Assembly (NCBI GenBank): GCA_943356745.1
Contig: CALRFT010000001.1
Location: 139,984 to 203,983, forward strand
From: Parcubacteria group bacterium
Lineage (GTDB): Bacteria; Patescibacteriota; Minisyncoccia; Phycocordibacterales; CSBR16-119
Length of the DNA: 64,000 nt
Reading direction: 5' to 3'
Of this stretch, positions 10,329-58,297 are shown piece by piece. Under the pieces are notes generated by a model. It was not told the DNA's origin. It ran no database searches and saw only the letters and a list, made by a program, of their open reading frames with translations. A program made the position numbers and the translations under genes. Each line of letters starts with the position of its first letter. Positions within the stretch are counted from its first letter, which is position 1.

Positions 10329-10649
10329 TTTTGTTAAAATAATCATTCTTTTTCCATTGATGAAAAAGAATCAAAAAATCTAGACACTCGCATTTTCTAC
10401 TAAAAACAAACATTCTTTTCTAAACATTACTAAACACTTCGCTTCTTTTCCGTCTTACGGACGGAAAAGCATAATGTTCTTAACGAAAAGGATGTTTGTT
10501 TTCTTCACGTGAGAATGTGAAAGTGTCAAAAAATCAGAAAACAACTCCTGCGAGCTTTTTTTGACTTCCAACAAATTTACACCTTTTGCCAAAATTAAGA
10601 TTGATTGCGTTATTAAATGATTTGATTTCTGCAATATAAATTATATACC

Positions 10650-11249
10650 TTAAACAAACTTATTTTTACCTCTCTCACGAAATTTCTTAAGAACCACCTG
10701 TTCTTCCGTAGTTAAGATATGATCACCTAACCCTGTTACTCTTAAGTATGTATTGAGCTCGCGAATACGGGCTGTTTGAAGCTCGCGAATACGGGCTGTT
10801 TGAAGCTCGCGAATACGGGCTGTCATATAACCAAAGTCTATTTTACCATTTTTTGTAATTGGTAGAAAAATTTTTTCATGTTGAATTTTTTTCCAGCTTG
10901 CCATGTTACTGTAAGAATAAAACTTCTTTAAAAATTGAAGTTGCGCAATGAAATAAAGACCCTCCTCAACAGAAAGTTCTTTTTCTTTAAAAGATAATGA
11001 AAAAACTCTTGCATGGGTAACCATTTTATATTCATGATTTCTAAAATAAACATATCCAAACATATCAACAGTGATTGTATTAGATTTGAATATTTTTGCT
11101 TTTATATCTGTTTTACCAATAATACCTGTATTAGTTTCTCCAGAACTTACGACAAAAATACCCTTGTTGTTAATATGAGTTTGTTGTATATCAAAATCAC
11201 CATTTTGTGGTTCAAATAATTCTGAGATTTTAAATTCTTTTTCTTTCAT
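10650..11249 (-). CDS. Restriction-modification specificity (HsdS-like) subunit, half-size with a single target-recognition domain
   Basis: TRD-like fold followed by a conserved helical region that contains a TARIRELQ x3 repeat. Lies 1 nt downstream of the MTase gene. Confidence 0.65.
   Translation of the reverse strand: MKEKEFKISELFEPQNGDFDIQQTHINNKGIFVVSSGETNTGIIGKTDIKAKIFKSNTITVDMFGYVYFRNHEYKMVTHARVFSLSFKEKELSVEEGLYFIAQLQFLKKFYSYSNMASWKKIQHEKIFLPITKNGKIDFGYMTARIRELQTARIRELQTARIRELNTYLRVTGLGDHILTTEEQVVLKKFRERGKNKFV
10757..10825 (-). repeat. Perfect 24-bp tandem repeat (about 2.8 copies) inside the specificity-subunit gene
   Basis: GCTCGCGAATACGGGCTGTTTGAA occurs at 10757-10780 and 10781-10804. 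A third copy from 10805 is identical for 19 nt. It encodes ARIRELQT repeats. Confidence 0.9.
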
Positions 11250-11250
11250 A

Positions 11251-13266
11251 CTATTCTCCTTTTAAAACACGAGAAACTTCCCAAGCAAGATAATCACTAA
11301 CTACTTTTTTAAAATCTTCTTCAGTTGGACGAGTGTCTACTATTTTATGTTGTGAAAATGTCCAGTCATTACCGTTGAGTGTGATTACATCCTCTATATA
11401 TTCATCTTTTGTAAGATATTTTAGATAATCTTTACCATATAAAACTAAATCAATTACTTCTTGGTATCTTTCTGTAGCATTATTTGTATTTTTCAAGTTT
11501 ACATCTTGACCAGATTTTTTACGATTTTGACGAGAGTACCCATCGTTAGAAAAATCAATAAATTTAACCTTTTGTTTTTCGTCATGTTTTTTACCTACTT
11601 CAAAAACATATATAGCTGTTTGCACGCCAGCTTTTCCTCGAAAAATATCTGCCATACGAATACTTGCAAGTAAAGTATTTTTCTCAAGAATTTCTTTAGT
11701 GTAGGGTAAACCATTACCACTTCCGGCATTTTCTTGAATCAAAATTACTGCTCGACCATTATTCATTTTACTGAGTCCTTTTTTAACGAAAACAAAACCC
11801 TTTCCATCTGCTGAGTACGGTGGATTAAGTAAAAAAACATTAGCTGGGAAATCTTTATTTTTATTTTCCCCTTGCTGATATTTACCTTCAAAGTTTTTTA
11901 AACTATCATCGTGGATAATGTTTGTTGATCCATCCCCCATTAAGATCATATTGAGAACAGCAAGTAAATAAATATCTGATCGTTTTTCAATTCCAAGTAA
12001 TTGTTTGTTTTTAATTTCTACAATTTTTTGATTTAATCTTTCTGGGCTCTTTATATTTTTAGTAGCGTCATCAATCATTAGTTTCATCGATGAAACAAGA
12101 AACCCAGCCGATCCTGTCGCGTAATCCCAAACATAAGAATCCATATCAACCTTAGCAAGTTTTGCCATTAATATCGTTACATAACGGGGAGTAAGCACCA
12201 CATCATTTTTATCGGAATCAGGAATATTTACCCAAGCATTCAATACATTAAACAATTTACCTGTAAAATCTAAATGGTAAGCTGATGTGAAAATTGGGAG
12301 AATATTTTTTTCAACAAACGAGTAGATAGTTTTTAGCTTACTCTCACCATTAATCGGTGTAGATAACCCAGAGGAAATAAATACTCTTGATAAATCAGTG
12401 ATTATCATTTCTTTCTTCTCTGTTGGCAAATCTCGTTTATCGAGAAAATCTGAAATTTTATTCAAAATAACCTTACCATCATTATTCTCTCTACCGGTTT
12501 CACCTCGTAAATCTGTAATTTCAAGTGGTGCGACTTTGTTTTCAACCCCAAGTCCTGCCATAAGCATACCTGTTAAAAGTTCTACTCTTGACCCAACAGA
12601 AATCTGTAAGTCATCTTGCATTTTTTGATTTAGTGCTTTGAGATTGACCTCAATTTCATTTTCAATTTTTTGACTACGTTGTTCAACTTCTTGTTGTGTA
12701 AGTTCCAGTTTTTGTACTTCAGCAATAAAATTTTCAAAATTATTTTTTGCTAAAAAAGACAAATCAGAATAGTTACCAACTTTTTTTGGTATTCCCATAT
12801 TTTTTGCAGAAACATAATAAATACCTAACTCTGTCTTTATGTCACCAGTCTTATCTTCATATCCATTAAATCCTATAGCAATTACCTCTTTATAAGAATC
12901 AGTAAAATCAATTATTGCCTTTGCATAGTGAACTGCGCCATTAACTGCAAATCCATTTATATTTGCAAAATTTGGTGAACCATCTTTTTTAATATTTTCT
13001 ATTTCACCAAAATCATTTATTTTTTCTAATTTTCCTGAAATACCTTTTACTTCAATCATTACTGGAAATAATTTTTTATCTTTTGTTTCAAGTAGTAATT
13101 TAATATCGGGGTAATTCTTACCATCACCGCCGGTTTTTGATGGAGCTTGAACCATGGCATTTGCAAGCTCACTATTTATATCTTCTGTTTTGATAAAATA
13201 CTTAAGTTCGGAAAACTCGAGTTGGCGCTTGGCAATATTCTCAATTTTTTCTTCAATACTTTTCAT
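11251..13266 (-). CDS. N6-adenine DNA methyltransferase subunit (gamma-class) with an N-terminal PD-(D/E)xK-like domain; BcgI-like Type IIB or Type I HsdM-like
   Basis: MTase motif I (DYATGSAGFL) and motif IV (NPPYS). The N-terminal ~200 aa have YPDIKLL..(x20)..MIEVKG, reminiscent of a PD-ExK nuclease core. The protein is 671 aa and no HsdR is nearby. Confidence 0.65.
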   Translation of the reverse strand: MKSIEEKIENIAKRQLEFSELKYFIKTEDINSELANAMVQAPSKTGGDGKNYPDIKLLLETKDKKLFPVMIEVKGISGKLEKINDFGEIENIKKDGSPNFANINGFAVNGAVHYAKAIIDFTDSYKEVIAIGFNGYEDKTGDIKTELGIYYVSAKNMGIPKKVGNYSDLSFLAKNNFENFIAEVQKLELTQQEVEQRSQKIENEIEVNLKALNQKMQDDLQISVGSRVELLTGMLMAGLGVENKVAPLEITDLRGETGRENNDGKVILNKISDFLDKRDLPTEKKEMIITDLSRVFISSGLSTPINGESKLKTIYSFVEKNILPIFTSAYHLDFTGKLFNVLNAWVNIPDSDKNDVVLTPRYVTILMAKLAKVDMDSYVWDYATGSAGFLVSSMKLMIDDATKNIKSPERLNQKIVEIKNKQLLGIEKRSDIYLLAVLNMILMGDGSTNIIHDDSLKNFEGKYQQGENKNKDFPANVFLLNPPYSADGKGFVFVKKGLSKMNNGRAVILIQENAGSGNGLPYTKEILEKNTLLASIRMADIFRGKAGVQTAIYVFEVGKKHDEKQKVKFIDFSNDGYSRQNRKKSGQDVNLKNTNNATERYQEVIDLVLYGKDYLKYLTKDEYIEDVITLNGNDWTFSQHKIVDTRPTEEDFKKVVSDYLAWEVSRVLKGE

Positions 13267-13527
13267 ATTCTATTTATAAACACACCACGACTAAAGAAAA
13301 TTATTTTTAAAATAATTAATACGTTAATCTTACTACATGAAAATTAAATAATCAATTTTCGACCCTTTCATAAAAAGCGTAAAGAAAAAGCAGGGTATAT
13401 TTCGTAGAGACGAACGCTTGAAGCAAAGCGTTTAGTGAGTCTCCGGAATATATCCTGCTTTTTTAGTTTTTTATGATGGGTCTAGACTTTTTGTTTCTTT
13501 TTGGGTGATGCAAAAAGAAAAATAATT

Positions 13528-14001
13528 CTAAAACTCTTTCACTTCAATATTTTCTGGTAAATCCCTAACACTAATTTTAATAGTTTCTACTGGTTTTACT
13601 TTTTTATAACTCACATATTCTGTAGAATTTATTTTTTCAAAATCTTTTTTCAAAAATACATAAACATACCCTTGAGCAGTTTGTGGTAAATTCTGATATG
13701 TTTCTTTATTTACTCTAAATAAAACATCTCCATCAACAAAAGAAAAACCTGAACGACAACTTTTCTTTAAATTTTCAGAATTAAATATTGCCATAAATAT
13801 TGCAATATCTACTATATGAGAAGTAAAAACAGCAGGTTGACCATCAGGGATTGCATCGTAAGTTCCATCTTCTTTTAATTTATGATTATACGCTTGTCGT
13901 GGTTCAAACTCTTCTTCAATCTTAGAACCTGAACCATGAAAAACATAATCCCCTATTTTTTCCAATTCTAGTAATTTTTGTTTTTGTTGCGAGTATTCCA
14001 T
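13528..14001 (-). CDS. Hypothetical protein
   Basis: Intact 157-aa ORF with a terminator-like long hairpin downstream (13385..13455). Confidence 0.35.
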   Translation of the reverse strand: MEYSQQKQKLLELEKIGDYVFHGSGSKIEEEFEPRQAYNHKLKEDGTYDAIPDGQPAVFTSHIVDIAIFMAIFNSENLKKSCRSGFSFVDGDVLFRVNKETYQNLPQTAQGYVYVFLKKDFEKINSTEYVSYKKVKPVETIKISVRDLPENIEVKEF

Positions 14002-15241: not shown

Positions 15242-16537
15242 ATGGCACAAAAAGATTCTGGGAGACTCACCCACGCAAATATTCCGATCATACAAGAAAG
15301 TGAATACTACAACATTCAAGGAATGTTTGAAAAAATTCAAGAAATCGTGATGTATTATGGATTTATTCCTGTTCATCTTCCAATGATTGAACATGAAGAA
15401 TTCGTAGCAAAGGCTGCTGGAAAACAACCTGAGAAAATCACAGAAACACTCTATGGTGTCAAACAACCAAAAAGTGGCGACAAGCTTAGTCTTCTTCAAA
15501 CAACAGCACCGGGATTTATTCGAACATATATTGACGAAAACATGATCGCGCTTCCACAGCCGGTTATGATGTACCGTTTTGGTCCACGATACCAAAATCA
15601 AAAAAATGGAACTCATGAATCTTTCACCTTCGACCTTGAAGTTGTGGGATCAGAAAAAAGTATCATGGATGCTCTTTTGATACGACTTGCTGTTTTATCT
15701 ATCGAAGAACTTGGAGGAAAACATATTTTTGTTCACATTAATTCTCTTGGAGACAAAACATGTAGACAGCACTATATCAAAGAACTCTCAAACTACTATC
15801 GAAAACATATTAATTCTCTTGATAAAGATGATAGGCAACTTCTCAAGACAGATCCACTTCTTGTTCTTAATTCAGAAAAAGAAGGAACAAAAGAAGTAAA
15901 CGCAAACGTTCCAGATCCACTTAGTTTTCTGACAACTGAATGTAAGAAACAATTTAAAGAGGTTCTTGAATATCTTGATGAACTTGGAATCTCATATCGA
16001 ATAGACAAAAAGATTACGCATGAACTTGATTCTGATAGTCACACCATGTTTGAAATCCGAGGATACTCAGAAGACGAGGAAGGAAATCATGACGAAGTAA
16101 ACAGTGTTATTCTCGCGCGAGGTGGAAGACATGATAACTTGATTAAAATGCTTGGATCGAAGAAAGACATTCCAGCAGTTGGAGCATCTATCTATGTTCA
16201 ATCAATCATGTCTATGCCTTGGTTCAAACCACACAGCCCACGAAATCTCAAAGAACCGAAAGTATATTTCATTCAACTTGGAACAGAAGCGAAAATGAAA
16301 AGTCTTGCAGTACTTGAACATCTTCGAAAAGCAAAAATTCCTGTTATGAAAGCACTTTCAAAAGACAGTCTTCAAGCACAACTTTCTGTAGCTGAAAAAA
16401 TTGGTGTTCCATACACAATTATTTTTGGTCACAAAGAAGCTCTTGAAGGAACTGTTATCATTCGAGCAATGAAAAACAGATCTCAGAAAACAGTAAAAAT
16501 TGATAAAATGATTGAGGAATTGAAAAAGATTAAATAA
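15242..16537 (+). CDS. Histidyl-tRNA synthetase paralog (HisRS-like, catalytic motifs degenerate)
   Basis: Full-length class-II HisRS architecture including a C-terminal anticodon-binding domain (TTAPGFIRTYIDE; ARGGRHDNL; AVGASIYVQSI). Motif 2 reads YRFGPRYQNQKNGTHESF instead of FRxERPQxGRxRQF. Confidence 0.55.
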   Translation: MAQKDSGRLTHANIPIIQESEYYNIQGMFEKIQEIVMYYGFIPVHLPMIEHEEFVAKAAGKQPEKITETLYGVKQPKSGDKLSLLQTTAPGFIRTYIDENMIALPQPVMMYRFGPRYQNQKNGTHESFTFDLEVVGSEKSIMDALLIRLAVLSIEELGGKHIFVHINSLGDKTCRQHYIKELSNYYRKHINSLDKDDRQLLKTDPLLVLNSEKEGTKEVNANVPDPLSFLTTECKKQFKEVLEYLDELGISYRIDKKITHELDSDSHTMFEIRGYSEDEEGNHDEVNSVILARGGRHDNLIKMLGSKKDIPAVGASIYVQSIMSMPWFKPHSPRNLKEPKVYFIQLGTEAKMKSLAVLEHLRKAKIPVMKALSKDSLQAQLSVAEKIGVPYTIIFGHKEALEGTVIIRAMKNRSQKTVKIDKMIEELKKIK

Positions 16538-21510: not shown

Positions 21511-22836
21511 TTAAAAATCAATAGCTTGTTTTATAAGGTCTGAAAATTCGAAAGTCTTTTGTTCTCGAGTTTTAATATTTTTAATTGATACAGTTGTATT
21601 TTCTTCTTCCTCTGTCCCAAGAATCACCACATATGTTGCTTGTGTAGATTCTGCGTAGCTAAAAATATCTCTAAATTCATTTTTTGAACCAACATAAACA
21701 TCAACTACAGAATTATTTTTTCGAAGCTCCGAAGCAACTTGCGCGGTGTATGAATTTGGTTGCTGAGAAAATACTACAATTTTTTTATTCGTCACAAGAC
21801 TTTCGAGTGCGCCGATAGTTCGAAGCGCTGTCTCGAGACGATCAACACCAACAGAAACTCCAACTGCTGGAAGTGACTGACTTGTAAATCTTTCAACAAG
21901 ATTATCGTATCTTCCACCGGAAACCACCGAACCGAATTCGGGAGCAGAGAGAAGGTTTGTTTCAAACACCGGACCTGTATAGTATGCAAATCCACGAATA
22001 ATTTTCATATCAAAAATTACTTTATCTTCCACTCCGAAATTTTCTAGATATTCTGATATAGTTTCAAGTTCAACAATTCCGGCCTCTGCATCTTGAAAAT
22101 CACCAAAAAATTTTTTAAGTTCTTTAATTGCATCTTGTGGTTTTGCGGCAATATTTGAAAATTGTTTTATTTTTTCAATCCCATCTTCAGCAATTCGAAG
22201 TCTTCTTAATTCTTGAACAAGTTCTTCTTGAGAAATTTTTTCAGCCTTATCAAGAACAATTAAAACTTCTTTCAAAAGATTCTGAGGAAATGAAATAAAC
22301 TGTGGCAAAATATTAAGAATTGTTCGAGTGTTTACACGAACAATAAAATCAGAAACCTGTAGTTCTTTCATAATTTCAGTAATCATGAAAATTATTTCTG
22401 AATCAGCAATAAGATTTTTTGTTCCTACCATATCTGCATCAAACTGCATAAACTGTCGATATCTTCCCTTTTGAGGTCTTTCACCCCGGAAAACGTATCC
22501 TGCTTGATATCGTTTAAAAGGTCTTGGAAGTGCGTTTCCGTATTGACTCACCGCTCGAGCCAAAGGAACAGTAAGATCAAAGCGCAAGGCAACATCTTCT
22601 TTATCTCCACTCAAACGTTGACTTGTTGATTCAAGACGAAACAAATTAAAATCACTCGCGCTTTCAGAAATTAAAATATTCTCAAATTCTGCAACTGGTG
22701 TTTCAAGGGGCAAGAATCCAAATCTTTTATATACTCGAGTAATACATTCAATAATGTATTGTCTTCCAGCAGCTTCAGAAGGAAGAAGATCTCGAAATCC
22801 ACTTGGAGTATTAAGCTTATTTTCGTACATATTCAT
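21511..22836 (-). CDS. hisS: Histidyl-tRNA synthetase
   Basis: GFRDLLP, class-II motif 2 (RYQAGYVFRGERPQKGRYRQFMQFDADMVG), GGRYDNL and GVDRL. Confidence 0.9.
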   Translation of the reverse strand: MNMYENKLNTPSGFRDLLPSEAAGRQYIIECITRVYKRFGFLPLETPVAEFENILISESASDFNLFRLESTSQRLSGDKEDVALRFDLTVPLARAVSQYGNALPRPFKRYQAGYVFRGERPQKGRYRQFMQFDADMVGTKNLIADSEIIFMITEIMKELQVSDFIVRVNTRTILNILPQFISFPQNLLKEVLIVLDKAEKISQEELVQELRRLRIAEDGIEKIKQFSNIAAKPQDAIKELKKFFGDFQDAEAGIVELETISEYLENFGVEDKVIFDMKIIRGFAYYTGPVFETNLLSAPEFGSVVSGGRYDNLVERFTSQSLPAVGVSVGVDRLETALRTIGALESLVTNKKIVVFSQQPNSYTAQVASELRKNNSVVDVYVGSKNEFRDIFSYAESTQATYVVILGTEEEENTTVSIKNIKTREQKTFEFSDLIKQAIDF

Positions 22837-51131: not shown

Positions 51132-53609
51132 TTATTCTGCTATAGTCCAACCATCTTTGAGATATTCGTCAATTTTCTTGAATTTTACTTCAATTCGTTC
51201 ACTTCCTCGAACCAAGGTAATTTTGTCATTTCTGTCATATTTTTTAGAAATATTTTGACTTATTACCACAGGATCTGGTTGAGGTACTTGCTGCTGCTCT
51301 GCAACATGGATAGTTTTTAGGAATTCAATAATCTGATTCTTAGTCATTTCTTCCATTCTTTGGAACATTACAAGTCCTTCTCGTTTGTATTCAATAATCG
51401 GATCACGCTGTCCATAAGAACGAAGCCCCACTGAGTTTCGAAGATATGACATAGATTCCAAATGTTCAACCCAGAGAATATCTGTAGAATGGAGCACTAT
51501 TCTTCGAACTATCATCCAGAATTGATTTTCTCCAACAAGAGCAGTTTTCTCTTGAATAATTCCATCAATAAGTTCTTTTGGAAAATTCTCAAGAAGATAT
51601 TGCTTTACCTCATCATCACTTGCGAGAAGCATTTTTCTTCGTCTTGCATATACCGCATTTCTTTGAGTATTTAAAACGTTATCGTACTCAAGAGTTGATT
51701 TTCTACCGTCAAACTGAAATCCTTCGACTTTCTTTTGCGCACTTTCAATTGATTTTGAAACAATACCGCTTGAAATAGGTTCGTCTTCTGGAAGTTTAAG
51801 AGTTGTAACAAGAGACTTGAGTCTGTCTCCTCCAAAAATTCTTGCAAGTTCATCATCAAGAGATATAAAGAATTGGGTTTTTCCTGGATCTCCTTGTCGT
51901 CCCGCTCGACCTCGAAGCTGATTATCAATTCTTCGAGAATCATGTCGCTCAGTTCCAAGAACAAACAAACCTCCAAGTTTTCGAACTTCTTCTGCTTGTT
52001 CTTTTGTTGAAGGTTCCCCTCCAAGTTTAATATCGATTCCTCGACCGGCCATGTTTGTTGCGATTGTAACCGCACCGAGTCGCCCAGCCTGTGCAATAAT
52101 CTGACCTTCTTGTTCATGCTTTTTAGCGTTCAATACTTCGTGCTTGATTCCAAGTCCTCGAAGATATTCAGACAAGAGTTCGTTTTGCTCAATTGAAATT
52201 GTACCAACCAAGATAGGCTGTCCTGTTTTGTTTACTTCTTGGATAGTTTTTGCAATCGCTTTAAATTTAGCCTGCTTATTAAAGAAGATAAGATCCTCAA
52301 GATCAATTCGTTCAATTTTTTTATTTGTAGGAATTGTAATCACAGGGAGATTGTATACAGCAAGAAACTCTTCTTTTGAGGTTTCAGCTGTTCCGGTCAT
52401 TCCCGAAAGTTTTTTGTAGAACCTGAAATAGTTTTGATATGTAATTGAAGCAGAAGTTTTACTTTCTCTTTTGATTTGAACTCCTTCCTTTGCCTCGAGT
52501 GCTTGGTGAAGCCCCATACTAAACCGTCGCCCTGGCATCATACGCCCTGTTGATTGGTCAACGATCACAATCTCTCCATCTTTTACAACATATTCTTTGT
52601 CTTTAATAAAAATTGCTTCTGCTCGAACAGCAGTTTCAAGATGGTGAACATACTTCATTCCCTTTTCAGTATAAATATTTGTAATACCTAGAAGCTTTTC
52701 TGCTTTTTCTATTCCAGAATCTGTAAGTGTAATCGCACGAAGTTTTTCATCAACTCCATAGTCTTGCTCTCTGGTAAGTTGTTTTGCAATTTTTGCAAAA
52801 GTTGTATAAAGCTCACCTGATTCTTCGCCAGGCATTGAGATGATAAGTGGAGTTCTTGCCTCATCAATCAAAATAGAATCTATTTCATCAACTACAGCAA
52901 AAGCATGTTTTCTTTGACTAAGCTGTTCTTTACTTGTTACCAAGTTATCACGAAGATAATCAAAACCAAACTCATTATTTGTTCCATACGTAATATCTGC
53001 TTCGTATGCCTGCTTTCTTGTGCAAGGACGAAGGTAATCATACTCAACTTTAAATGAGCCAAGAGAATCACGTTCTTTGTCATCTTCTCGAGTAGCAAGA
53101 GATTCATCATATATGTATGAAGTATTTTCTTGATTGATTACAGAGATTGAAAGTCCGAGAAAATTATAAATTTGTCCCATCCACACAGCGTCACGTCTTG
53201 CGAGATAGTCGTTCACAGTAATAACATGTACGCCTTCTCCAGTTAATGCATTGAGATATGCAGCGAGAGTTCCCACAAGAGTTTTTCCTTCTCCTGTTCG
53301 CATTTCAGCAATAGCACCAGAATGAAGAGCCATACCTCCAATAAGCTGAACGTCATAGTGTCTCATTCCAAGTGTTCTTTTTGAAGCCTCTCGAACTACA
53401 GCAAAAGACTCCGCAAGAATATCATCAAGTGTTTTACCTTCTTGAAGTTTTTCTTTGAAATAGACTGTTTTTGCTTTGAGTTCTTCATTTGAAAGTTGAC
53501 TCATTACAGCTTCAAAATTATTGATTTCCTGGATCTTATTTTGAGCTTTTTTGATAAAAGAGGTACTCTCATCACCAAAAAGCTTCTTGAATTTGCCTAA
53601 TATTGACAT
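51132..53609 (-). CDS. secA: Preprotein translocase ATPase SecA
   Basis: Start at MSILGKFKKLFGD. Walker A region (MRTGEGKTLVGTLAAYLNAL) and DEVDSILIDEARTPLIIS. Confidence 0.9.
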   Translation of the reverse strand: MSILGKFKKLFGDESTSFIKKAQNKIQEINNFEAVMSQLSNEELKAKTVYFKEKLQEGKTLDDILAESFAVVREASKRTLGMRHYDVQLIGGMALHSGAIAEMRTGEGKTLVGTLAAYLNALTGEGVHVITVNDYLARRDAVWMGQIYNFLGLSISVINQENTSYIYDESLATREDDKERDSLGSFKVEYDYLRPCTRKQAYEADITYGTNNEFGFDYLRDNLVTSKEQLSQRKHAFAVVDEIDSILIDEARTPLIISMPGEESGELYTTFAKIAKQLTREQDYGVDEKLRAITLTDSGIEKAEKLLGITNIYTEKGMKYVHHLETAVRAEAIFIKDKEYVVKDGEIVIVDQSTGRMMPGRRFSMGLHQALEAKEGVQIKRESKTSASITYQNYFRFYKKLSGMTGTAETSKEEFLAVYNLPVITIPTNKKIERIDLEDLIFFNKQAKFKAIAKTIQEVNKTGQPILVGTISIEQNELLSEYLRGLGIKHEVLNAKKHEQEGQIIAQAGRLGAVTIATNMAGRGIDIKLGGEPSTKEQAEEVRKLGGLFVLGTERHDSRRIDNQLRGRAGRQGDPGKTQFFISLDDELARIFGGDRLKSLVTTLKLPEDEPISSGIVSKSIESAQKKVEGFQFDGRKSTLEYDNVLNTQRNAVYARRRKMLLASDDEVKQYLLENFPKELIDGIIQEKTALVGENQFWMIVRRIVLHSTDILWVEHLESMSYLRNSVGLRSYGQRDPIIEYKREGLVMFQRMEEMTKNQIIEFLKTIHVAEQQQVPQPDPVVISQNISKKYDRNDKITLVRGSERIEVKFKKIDEYLKDGWTIAE

Positions 53610-53719
53610 GACAGTATAGTACCATATTGAGACCCAAGAAAAAACCCTATACAAAAAACAAAAAAGTCCTCGAAAGGACTTTTTTGTTAGGTAGGTAGAT
53701 ACATAATAACGAAGCGAAA

Positions 53720-53854
53720 TTATCGTCGTCGTCGTGATGTTTTCTTAGCTGCTTTCTTTACAACTTTTTTAGTTGCTTTTTTAGCTGCTTTCTTTACAAC
53801 TTTCTTTGCTGCTTTCTTTGCAACTTTTTTAGCTGTTTTCTTTTTTGCTGCCAT
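53720..53854 (-). CDS. Small lysine/alanine-repeat basic protein (44 aa, histone H1-like AKK repeats), not in ORF track
   Basis: Translation is MAAKKKTAKKVAKKAAKKVVKKAAKKATKKVVKKAAKKTSRRRR. The underlying DNA repeat is GCTGCTTTCTTTACAACTTT-like. Confidence 0.4.
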   Translation of the reverse strand: MAAKKKTAKKVAKKAAKKVVKKAAKKATKKVVKKAAKKTSRRRR

Positions 53855-55174: not shown

Positions 55175-55395
55175 AATTGTTTCTATGTTAAAAAAACCGC
55201 TTTGGGGCGGTTTTTTCTTTTCCTCGACCCTTGAAGAAAAGACGCAAAGAAAAACACAGACAAACTCTGATAAGAGACTTACGTTCAAGCGAAGCGGTTA
55301 GTAAATCTCCAGAATTTGTCTGTGTTTTTTAGTCTTTTCAAGTGGGTCTTGAGTTTTTGCTACTTTTTTATCAAGAAAAAAGTAGGTAAAAAAAA

Positions 55396-56308: not shown

Positions 56309-56523
56309 TAAAAAGAATACCTATTTCATATTATCTCCTTAGCTTTGTTTCGCTTCAACCTTGTTTACTAGAGGCTACAAGTACTCTTGTATAGTAGCTT
56401 TGTAAAAGGATTTTTGTTTTATCTTTCCAGTAAAACATTGGGATTGGTTTTCCTCCAATCAAGGCATACTCATCGAGATGAGTAACCGACGCTTTGTCTT
56501 TAACAAAAAAGACAATTTTCAAA

Positions 56524-58050
56524 TTGAATTATTCCACGAGCAGCTTCCGCTACCCGTGCCTTGTTACGACTTAGTCCCTGTCACCGAATTTACCTTAGGC
56601 CCTCCGTGAGGAGAGACTTTGGGTACCCCCGGCTCCCTTGACTTGACGGGCGGTGAGTACAAGACTCGAGAACGTATTCACCGCAGTATAGCTGACCTGC
56701 GATTACTAGCAATTCCAACTTCATATGGTCGAGTTTCAGACCACAATCCGAACTAAGAATGGTTTTTAAGGATTGGCTCAGTCTTACGACGTCGCGACCC
56801 GTTGTACCATCCATTGTATCATGCGTGTAGCCCAAGGCGTCTAGGGTCATGCTGACCTGGCGTCATCCTCTCCTTCCTCCCAGCCCACAATCCACGAATG
56901 ATGATTCATTCCTGAACTTTGGGCCGGGCAGTCTCGCGTGACACTTGTAACACGCTGATGAGGGTTGCGTTCGTTAGCCCACTTAAGGGTACAACTCAAG
57001 CCACGAACTGACGACGGCCATGCAACACCTGTCTAGCCGTCCCGAAGGAAAATTCTGGTTTCCCAAAATCGTCGTCTAGATGTCTAACCTTGGTGAGGTT
57101 TTTCGTTTATCATCGAATTAAACCGCATGATCCACTGCTTGTGCGAGTCCCCGTCTATTCCTTTGAGTTTTAGTCTTGCGACCGTACTTCCCAGGCGGCA
57201 GATTTAACGCGTTAGCTACGCCTCTCGAAGGGTCGATACTCCGAAAAGCTAATCTGCATCGTTTAGGCCGTGGACTACTGGGGTATCTAATCCCATTCGC
57301 TACCCACGGTTTCGTGCCTCAGTGTCAGAAATGTGCCAGTGTACTGCCTTCGCTTTTGGTGTTCCCAACGATATCAACGGATTTCACCCCTACACCGTTA
57401 GTTCCGTACACCTCTCACATTCTCTAGTCATACCGTTTCGAATGCATTCCTCGGGTTAAGCCCGAGTCTTTAACATTCGACTAATATAACCACCTACGCA
57501 CCCTTTACGCCCAATAATTCCGGATAACGCTTGAGGCTCTCGTATTACCGCTCCTGCTGGCACGAGATTAGGAGCCCCTTATTCATAAGGTAACGTCAAA
57601 AATTTCCTCCCTTATAAAAGATTTTTACACTCCGAAGAGCGTCATCAATCACGCGGCGTCGCTCCGTCACACTTTCGTGCATTGCGGAAGATTCTCGACT
57701 GCAGCCTCCCGTAGGAGTTTGGACCGTGTCGCAGTTCCAATGGTGGGGGTCAGGCTCTCACCTCCCCTAGGCGTCATAGCCTTGGTAAGCCATTACCTTA
57801 CCAACTAGCTGATACCACACAGGCCGATCTAGAAGCGATAAATCTTTACCCCGGAGGGACTATCAAGTATTAATCCACCTTTCGGTGGGCTATTCCTGAC
57901 TTCTAGGTACGTTCCTATGCATTACTACCCCGTTCGCCACTAACCAGCGTGAAAACTTTGTCCGAAGACTCCATTTCCACAAGGTTCGTTCGACTTGCAT
58001 GCCTTATCCACGCCGCCAGCGTTCATCCTGAGCTAGGATCAAACTCTAAC
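56524..58050 (-). rRNA. rrs: 16S ribosomal RNA (about 1.53 kb), not followed by 23S/5S in this window
   Basis: Reverse complement begins AGAGTTTGATCCTAGCTCAG and contains ACTCCTACGGGAGGCTGCAG, GTGCCAGCAGGAGCGGTAATAC, GGATTAGATACCCCAGTAGTCC and TTGTACTCACCGCCCGTCA. It ends with helix 45 (GGAA loop) followed by AATAATTCAA. Confidence 0.9.
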
Positions 58051-58297
58051 AATAAACTTAATAATCGAAATTATTAATTTGAAACGAAACAAAGCAAAAA
58101 AGATAATTTGTTGCTTTGTTTAATAAAAGGGTTATTCACACGATTCACCATGTATATTTCCATATACTTGTTTTTTATCGTTTGCATAACAATATCTTCA
58201 TATCCTAATTAATATATGAAGAATAGGTATTCTTTTTTCAAGGTAGTTTCCCTCAAATTTCTTTAAAGAAAAACGCCTTCTTTAAGACGCAAATACA

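Follow-up and report, generated by a model that had tools for sequence, protein, structure and literature searches.

The window analysed here, a 64-kb (64,000-nucleotide) stretch of DNA from an uncultured Parcubacteria group bacterium (GenBank assembly GCA_943356745.1, contig CALRFT010000001.1, positions 139,984 to 203,983), carries a gene for a half-size specificity (S) subunit with a perfect 24-bp tandem repeat inside its coding sequence, adjacent to a gene (RM) for a combined restriction and modification subunit. The number of repeat copies is polymorphic between near-identical genomes, and the two-copy and three-copy alleles both encode full-length proteins that differ by an in-frame change. 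In Type IIB enzymes, which cut out a short piece of DNA surrounding a bipartite site, the specificity is set by a small, re-engineerable S subunit. Our preferred reading, to which a probability of about 0.55 is assigned, is that the repeat constitutes a modular, length-variable part of the long helix that follows the target recognition domain (TRD) in the half-size S of a BcgI-like restriction-modification (R-M) system, and that a change in copy number alters the spacing between the recognised half-sites.

The repeat array and its units, all of which are read from the minus strand, are as follows.

10756 to 10823, minus strand: perfect 24-bp tandem repeat of 2.8 copies, identified with Tandem Repeats Finder
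10823 to 10800, minus strand: repeat unit 1, codons 143-150, TARIRELQ
10799 to 10776, minus strand: repeat unit 2, codons 151-158, TARIRELQ
10775 to 10752, minus strand: repeat unit 3, codons 159-166, TARIRELN, with a diverged 3' end

Tandem Repeats Finder returned the array with a period of 24, 100% matches, no indels and a score of 136, making it both the top-scoring and the sole perfect tandem repeat of the window. A pattern search with the 20-nt core, ACAGCCCGTATTCGCGAGCT, located three minus-strand occurrences at 24-nt spacing, compared with an expected count of 0.00 in 100 shuffles. The perfect period stops at 10823, giving two full units plus 20 nt, and the last two codons of unit 3 read CTC AAT as opposed to the CTT CAA of the other units. 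A preliminary description of this DNA, made from the sequence alone, had placed a perfect repeat of about three copies at 10757-10825, within 2 nt of the coordinates given above, and had translated it as three copies of (T)ARIRELQ, which is correct for units 1 and 2, with unit 3 being TARIRELN. Its assignment of the repeat to the conserved helical region of a half-size S subunit also holds, since the array is in frame within an open reading frame (ORF) that matches Methylase_S and falls inside the predicted helix at residues 139-172. The GC content of the repeat is 0.56, against 0.31 for the S gene.

The copy-number polymorphism anticipated in that description is real. The best database match of the S protein is P0001 (191 aa), which is the window protein minus exactly one TARIRELQ. 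The contig that encodes it, L001 (ENA k141_742120, 518 kb), is syntenic with the window, and alignment of L001 with window positions 650-21249 gave 20,600 columns with a single 24-bp gap, located at the repeat, and two single-nucleotide differences (859 and 877). There are no other protein differences between the S of the window (three copies) and that of L001/P0001 (two copies), i.e. these are natural alleles that differ by copy number alone, and both genomes encode an intact RM protein, at 100% identity to each other (P0181). Protein P0121 in the cluster table is identical to the window S. One-unit differences are seen in other pairs also: P0128 and P0124 (379 and 371 aa, respectively) differ by one unit with no mismatches, and the members of the pairs P0016/P0110, P0157/P0120 and P0077/P0177 are identical or near-identical apart from one unit. 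A scan of JGI metagenomes for population variants returned one distant locus only, at 49% identity, and the best match in a scan of genome representatives, among which this species is not included, was 61%.

The S gene and the parts of its predicted protein are located as listed below, with confidence given as the predicted local distance difference test (pLDDT).

10650 to 11249, minus strand: S gene, 199 aa, single-TRD (half-size) specificity subunit, from Pfam, PADLOC and Foldseek
10836 to 11249, minus strand: TRD, residues 1-138, pLDDT 93-98 in the AlphaFold2 model
10734 to 10835, minus strand: conserved-region helix, residues 139-172, holding all three 8-aa units, from DSSP on the model
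10665 to 10709, minus strand: connector helix, residues 181-195, after a loop, from the AlphaFold2 model

The S ORF matches Pfam Methylase_S (E=3.5e-13) and the PADLOC profile Specificity_II (PDLC03593, Type II specificity subunit; E=1.4e-48), the latter over profile positions 12-201 of 405, i.e. the first half, and its relatives in the database are named BcgI subunit beta. The protein was modelled with AlphaFold2 as a monomer from an alignment of 49 sequences, with a mean pLDDT of 92.4. The TRD in the model has a globular, mixed beta/alpha fold, and among the 49 aligned relatives G17, D20 and I21 of the motif GDFDIQ and D62, M63, F64 and G65 of the motif DMFG are invariant, as are T78, H79 and V82 of the motif YKMVTHARVF, the other positions of which are at least 90% conserved. 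An alignment of 24 sequences yields a similar list of conserved TRD motifs. Directly after the TRD, the model predicts one uninterrupted 34-residue helix (residues 139-172) with the repeat residues, 143-166, inside it, and this helix presumably serves as a dimerisation zipper or spacer ruler. The connector helix aligns with the connector of full-length relatives, where it leads into a second TRD (TRD2) and is often followed immediately by a poly-G tract. A sequence search of the PDB with S and RM returned nothing useful, fold comparison being informative instead: Foldseek matched the S model to the HsdS structures 1ydx, 1yf2, 5ybb_D and EcoR124I 7bst_A, and also to 8w0p_C, the S subunit of BsaXI (a Type IIB enzyme).

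The layout of two TRDs alternating with two conserved regions (TRD1-CR1-TRD2-CR2) is not present in the window S, which comprises TRD, conserved region and connector in 199 aa. When the C-terminal halves of 88 two-TRD relatives were used as tblastn queries, the existing TRD was the only match and no second TRD or pseudogene remnant was found downstream of S; nor does the 64-kb window contain a further S or TRD copy able to form an inverting shufflon. Since single-TRD alleles are known in the family (PMC3077401), the missing TRD2 is regarded as a variant as opposed to grounds for exclusion from the BcgI-like class.

The type of system is indicated by the partner gene.

11251 to 13266, minus strand: RM gene, 671 aa, BcgI-A-like, with an N-terminal PD..ExK nuclease fused to a gamma-class N6-adenine methyltransferase

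RM and S form a tightly coupled pair of neighbouring genes within a small accessory island: a single nucleotide separates the RM stop codon from the S start codon (junction sequence GGAGAATAGTATG), with GGAG just 5' of the S ATG. Residues 357-604 of RM match Pfam N6_Mtase and residues 19-669 match the PADLOC profile REase_MTase_IIG (Type IIG restriction enzyme-methyltransferase; E=2.6e-192), while P53 D54 ... E72 x K74 (PD..ExK) and N481 P482 P483 Y484 (NPPY) are invariant in 25 homologs. The PD...EXK glutamate of the BcgI A subunit is Glu53 (PMC3592470). The N-terminal domain of RM is predicted to adopt an alpha-beta-beta-beta-alpha-beta arrangement, with a pLDDT of ~80-90, the value for the RM model as a whole being only 67.7; Foldseek aligned this model over its full length to the BsaXI RM subunit 8w0p_A, and the C-terminal two-thirds align with HsdM proteins. 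By tblastn, RM matches the Staphylococcus phage phi-42 record X94423.1 at 29% identity across 84% of the query, and is also 29% identical to a gene of phage phiSabovST1 annotated as 'bcgIA protein'. A BcgI-like system, Sau42I, is encoded by phage phi-42 (Dempsey et al. 2005, as cited in PMC3077401). No HsdR was found in the island or among 16 neighbouring or large ORFs scanned, which represent part of the ORFs of the window and are housekeeping or unrelated genes, including those for DnaE, SecA, RNase J and a VirD4/TraG-like type IV coupling ATPase. Since RM has a PD..ExK nuclease of its own and is scored by PADLOC as Type IIG, and HsdR is absent from the island and the scanned ORFs, these sequence features identify the system as a BcgI-like Type IIB/IIG R-M system with a half-size S, and not as Type I. 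Two close RM homologs with 67-69% identity, P0267 (871 aa) and P0269 (859 aa), are single chains fused to a Methylase_S domain, indicating that natural fusions of RM to a half-size S occur in the family.

The length of the helix was compared across the family. The distance between the positions equivalent to the invariant residues F139 and Y168 is only ever 12, 20 or 28 residues (25, 183 and 28, respectively, of 236 alignable sequences), corresponding to one, two or three units of 8 aa; among the 28-residue cases, P0071 and L007 are false, being C-terminal-type conserved regions miscounted at 28. Relatives of the window S thus carry one, two or three units. Perfect or near-perfect 24-bp tandem repeats were present at the same site of the S gene in 12 of 80 species-representative loci, including those of Campylobacter jejuni, Seminibacterium arietis, Veillonellaceae, Clostridia, an alphaproteobacterial metagenome-assembled genome, three Helicobacter pylori strains and others. 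The unit sequences are lineage-specific, indicating that the duplications are independent and recent, and perfect duplications of this kind are present in at least 10 taxa besides that of the window. Units are gained and lost family-wide in whole 24-bp steps, and much faster than point mutations arise, presumably via slipped-strand mispairing or unequal recombination between identical units.

Several further observations concern the helix and the connector. Among cluster representatives (P0001-P0120), a three-unit helix is present in 10 of the 38 that terminate shortly beyond it (single-TRD or truncated forms), compared with 0 of 78 with two TRDs, and one-unit helices show the reverse distribution, at 1/38 versus 17/78 (Fisher p=6e-6, for sequences that are not phylogenetically independent). 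Among cluster members, P0128 is a two-TRD exception to this pattern. A poly-G tract of 8-22 nt is present in the connector after the helix in L002, L003, L005, L006, L012, L032, L034, L043, L066 and L071-L074, and the equivalent tract in L076 is (AG)8. Frame variants within one 90% cluster (P0098/P0165/P0168; P0120/P0154) encode either a half-size S (~190-224 aa) or one with two TRDs (364-397 aa), and poly-G frame switching, which is known for H. pylori (PMC3936762), appears to be widespread. The window S has no poly-G tract, reading RERG (cgt gag aga ggt) and ending six codons later. With regard to composition, the repeat codons GCC, CGC and GAG are rare elsewhere in S and RM. G/C at the third codon position (GC3) is considerably higher in the conserved helix than in the TRD of the same S gene in 70 of 75 loci (the window and L002-L081), with means of 0.425 for helix codons and 0.259 for the TRD (Wilcoxon p=1e-12). 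This excess might stem from biased gene conversion, from selection favouring slippage, or from conservation at the DNA level of a site for recombination.

How the number of units might act on specificity can be set out as follows. Two S subunits would pair by antiparallel packing of their helices and, together with the C-terminal helices of two RM subunits, would build an (RM)2S2 assembly whose bipartite recognition site is palindromic. For any copy number n, unit i of one chain would pack against unit n+1-i of the other and, since the units are identical, the zipper would remain intact at any copy number. Each added unit would place the TRDs ~12 Angstrom further apart and rotate them by ~80 degrees, such that the half-site recognised by the two-copy and three-copy alleles would be the same but the spacer would differ in length; scaling of the experimentally calibrated rule of 4 aa = 1 bp would give +2 bp per unit, the figure from helix rise alone being 3-4 bp. 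As restriction and methylation depend on one and the same S, both would be retargeted together. By analogy with the TAEL repeats of EcoR124I/II, the most probable effect of copy number is an altered spacing of the half-sites.

A number of points weigh against this mechanism. The 8-residue unit breaks the heptad phase, which makes the packing argument qualitative, and the predicted structure is that of the S monomer only. The proposed change of spacer with copy number is drawn from analogy, and deletion data for BsaXI urge caution: deletion of 8-32 aa of CR1 from an engineered BsaXI half-S lowered activity and left the N5 spacer unchanged (PMC9159934). The BcgI methyltransferase favours hemimethylated DNA (PMC6789123, citing Kong 1998 and Smith 2013), and with this preference a new specificity could be self-toxic, contrary to free switching. 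The motifs of H. pylori Type IIG S genes could not be assigned (Furuta et al. 2014; PMC3983042). Finally, the exact island occurs in only two genomes, and the alleles were compared between genomes as opposed to within one population.

A wider proposal, possible albeit doubtful, is that the 8-aa unit has evolved family-wide as a 'digital ruler', in which identical GC-rich units are kept or repeatedly regenerated for the sake of a mutable helix length, at a fixed ~2 bp per unit, such that one RM and S pair could pass between discrete palindromic specificities with spacers of, for example, N4, N6 and N8, with three units being preferred in single-TRD S proteins. Under this proposal the homodimeric zipper of a single-TRD S would need a length other than that of the CR1/CR2 pair of a two-TRD S.

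Of the explanations that compete with altered half-site spacing, the one that survives best, although we consider it unlikely, is that copy number is a tolerated length polymorphism that leaves specificity unchanged, with the spacing of the TRDs being fixed by the RM subunits and DNA, and copy number at most tuning stability or activity. The data of PMC9159934 are consistent with such tolerance, in that the engineered BsaXI TRD1-CR1 half-S recognises the symmetric site AC N5 GT and still cuts it, with reduced activity, after the CR1 deletions described above. The BsaXI CR1 helix has a hinge (PMC11997821), and the predominance of two units in the family (183/236) is as expected with one optimal length. 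Conversely, the strict 8-aa quantisation, and the persistence of one- and three-unit forms in many lineages, speak against this alternative. All Type I systems tested, half-S homodimers included, shift spacing with the number of central repeats (PMC3874165, PMC3983042, PMC6789123), and the BsaXI deletions (PMC9159934) would not be comparable if the free C-terminal end, as opposed to internal units, had been removed.

A distinctly less probable alternative is an in-frame activity switch, in which one copy number is functional and the other allele has lost its function or is attenuated, allowing escape from self-restriction or the uptake of DNA. Inactivity is common among the homologous H. pylori systems (PMC3936762, PMC3983042), cleavage is impaired by the BsaXI CR1 deletions (PMC9159934), and the R-M island is dispensable, being absent from sibling strains, all of which would fit such a switch. 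However, the two alleles are accompanied by an intact RM with 100% identity between the genomes, three-unit alleles occur in at least 10 lineages with an otherwise conserved S, and a frameshift or deletion would be a simpler means of inactivation, for which relatives already use poly-G tracts.

Assembly error or a collapsed repeat was considered as the source of the two- versus three-copy difference and rejected as very improbable. Both sequences are metagenome assemblies, but the array, at 44-68 bp, is shorter than typical reads and than the largest k-mer of 141 (as inferred from the contig name k141_742120), and one-unit differences are found also in independent protein pairs, including those from H. 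pylori and C. jejuni isolate genomes (PMC3077401). The preliminary description had taken the system to be Type I and the repeat to be a candidate phase- or specificity-variable switch, and a classical Type I HsdS with an ON/OFF simple-sequence repeat, for which the HsdS fold and Methylase_S match of S might be cited, is scarcely tenable given the RM nuclease motif, the PADLOC Type IIG score, the lack of HsdR in the island and scanned large ORFs, and a 24-bp unit that, being divisible by three and located in frame within the ORF, causes no frameshift and leaves both alleles full-length.

The island on which the genes reside was delimited by comparison with seven sibling contigs, ~98% identical in the flanks.

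10387 to 14000: strain-variable island of ~3.6 kb with ORF157, RM and S, between the S1-domain gene and pth
13528 to 14001, minus strand: ORF157, 157 aa, with only a weak, sub-threshold DUF6886 match

Three of the siblings (L082, L084 and L085, with flanks 98.0-99.3% identical) align with the window up to 10386 and again from 14001, and carry ~980 bp of unrelated sequence in place of the island; the remaining four (L086, L087, L090 and L091) reveal the 14001 boundary only. The GC content of the island is 0.307, against 0.349 for the window. ORF157, which has no PADLOC or PHROG match, accompanies RM and S and is missing along with them from the sibling strains. A scan for promoters and terminators and a repeat search at the island flanks revealed no integration signature, there being no integrase and no flanking direct repeats. 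The ~980-bp replacement in the siblings contains two tiny ORFs and a 58-bp stretch that resembles window positions 55329-55386. Between ORF157 and the start of RM lies an inverted repeat (13385-13463; 24 nt, 88% complementary, 31-nt loop) that could be a terminator or operator.

Elsewhere in the window, an imperfect tandem repeat of 12/36 bp at 53741-53843, with the minus-strand unit GCAGCTAAGAAA encoding Ala-Ala-Lys-Lys, is located just upstream of the TTG that is listed as the start codon of SecA (51132-53654), and may represent an N-terminal extension of SecA if the true start is further upstream. Two HisRS-like genes lie 5 kb apart, at 15242-16537 (431 aa) and 21511-22836 (441 aa); the second has tRNA-synt_His and anticodon-binding domains, and the first matches both families on sibling contigs. 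The minus strand also bears a complete bacterial 16S rRNA gene (56522-58054), which no 23S gene adjoins within the window.

If repeat number does set the spacer, then natural one-, two- and three-unit alleles would amount to a rule with which recognition sequences could be predicted or designed, and uncultured bacteria would have an additional, fast, in-frame route to diversification of the methylome and of defence. The digital ruler, if true, would carry the EcoR124 principle over to Type IIB enzymes, where the module is of another size, and would point towards cutters with programmable spacers. Should the spacer instead stay fixed, Type IIB complexes would measure distance differently from Type I. 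The two-copy and three-copy genomes, with hardly any other difference over 20.6 kb, constitute a clean natural experiment in this respect.

Among characterised systems, the preliminary description had invoked the TAEL repeats of EcoR124I/II, and this is the appropriate functional analogy. EcoR124I, EcoR124II and EcoDXXI (Type IC HsdS) resemble the window S in having an in-frame helix repeat beside a TRD and natural alleles one unit apart; however, the TAEL unit is 12 bp (4 aa) as opposed to 24 bp (8 aa), and these are Type I enzymes with a separate HsdR motor. Two or three TAEL copies in EcoR124I/II give N6 or N7, and in homodimeric half-S mutants two repeats give N7 and three give N8 (PMC3874165), while in H. 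pylori Type I group 2 the methylated bases are 7 or 8 bp apart with three or four repeats, respectively (PMC3983042). The effect of the repeat on the spacer is proven for EcoR124I/II and would apply to the window S by analogy. In NgoAV of Neisseria gonorrhoeae, the number of LEAT repeats and a downstream frameshift jointly set specificity (PMC6789123), the frameshift arising in a poly-G tract and truncating HsdS. Relatives of the window S likewise combine a helix repeat with poly-G, and the window S itself is the counterpart of the truncated state of NgoAV, from which it differs in that NgoAV is Type I with a 4-aa unit and retains the poly-G tract.

Closer in architecture are BsaXI and BcgI. 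BsaXI (Type IIB) shares the RM fusion and the HsdS-like S, as indicated by the fold matches, and was resolved by cryo-electron microscopy as an (RM)2S complex with the CR1/CR2 helices forming an antiparallel bundle (PMC11997821); its RM is 914-916 aa, compared with 671 in the window, and its natural S has two TRDs and a CR1 devoid of tandem repeats. BcgI (CGA N6 TGC) has the same plan as the window system, with an A subunit consisting of an N-terminal PD..EXK nuclease and N6-methyltransferase and an S-like B subunit. However, the B subunit of BcgI contains two TRDs and acts in the form A2B, whereas the window system would be expected to use a half-S homodimer.

The nearest precedent is the H. 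pylori HP1471/JHP1364 family, the S proteins of which are homologous to that of the window (P0115 and loci L032-L078 were recovered together with it). In the description by Furuta et al. (2011; PMC3077401), there is a 24-bp sequence, CAGTGTCGGCTCGCCGAACTTGAG (QCRLAELE), in 0-4 tandem copies between the TRDs of the H. pylori BcgI-like Type IIG S gene, together with a single-TRD allele of that gene. HP1471/72 and JHP1364/65 were subsequently described as BcgI-like with a phase-variable poly-G tract in the S gene, and Hpy99XXII as methylating TCA N6 TRG (Krebes et al. 2014; PMC3936762). TARIRELQ aligns in the same columns as QCRLAELE (shared motif xRxxELEx), and GCCGAACTTGAGCAGTGTCGGCTC, a rotation of the published H. 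pylori unit, was found by Tandem Repeats Finder to be repeated in L032, L040 and L043. In both cases, then, the unit is 24 bp or 8 aa, directly follows TRD1, is of related sequence and varies in copy number between strains, with a single-TRD allele existing in H. pylori also. At the DNA level the window unit is unrelated to that of H. pylori, which indicates an independent duplication. Unlike the H. pylori genes, the window S has a fixed single TRD, lacks the poly-G tract and TRD2, and comes from an uncultured bacterium with 35% GC. The 24-bp helix repeat of BcgI-like S genes has therefore been known in H. pylori since 2011, and the window is a further case, in which the S has a single TRD and is encoded on an accessory island in a low-GC, uncultured bacterium, with a one-unit polymorphism between near-identical genomes and, across the family, a helix length that is quantised.

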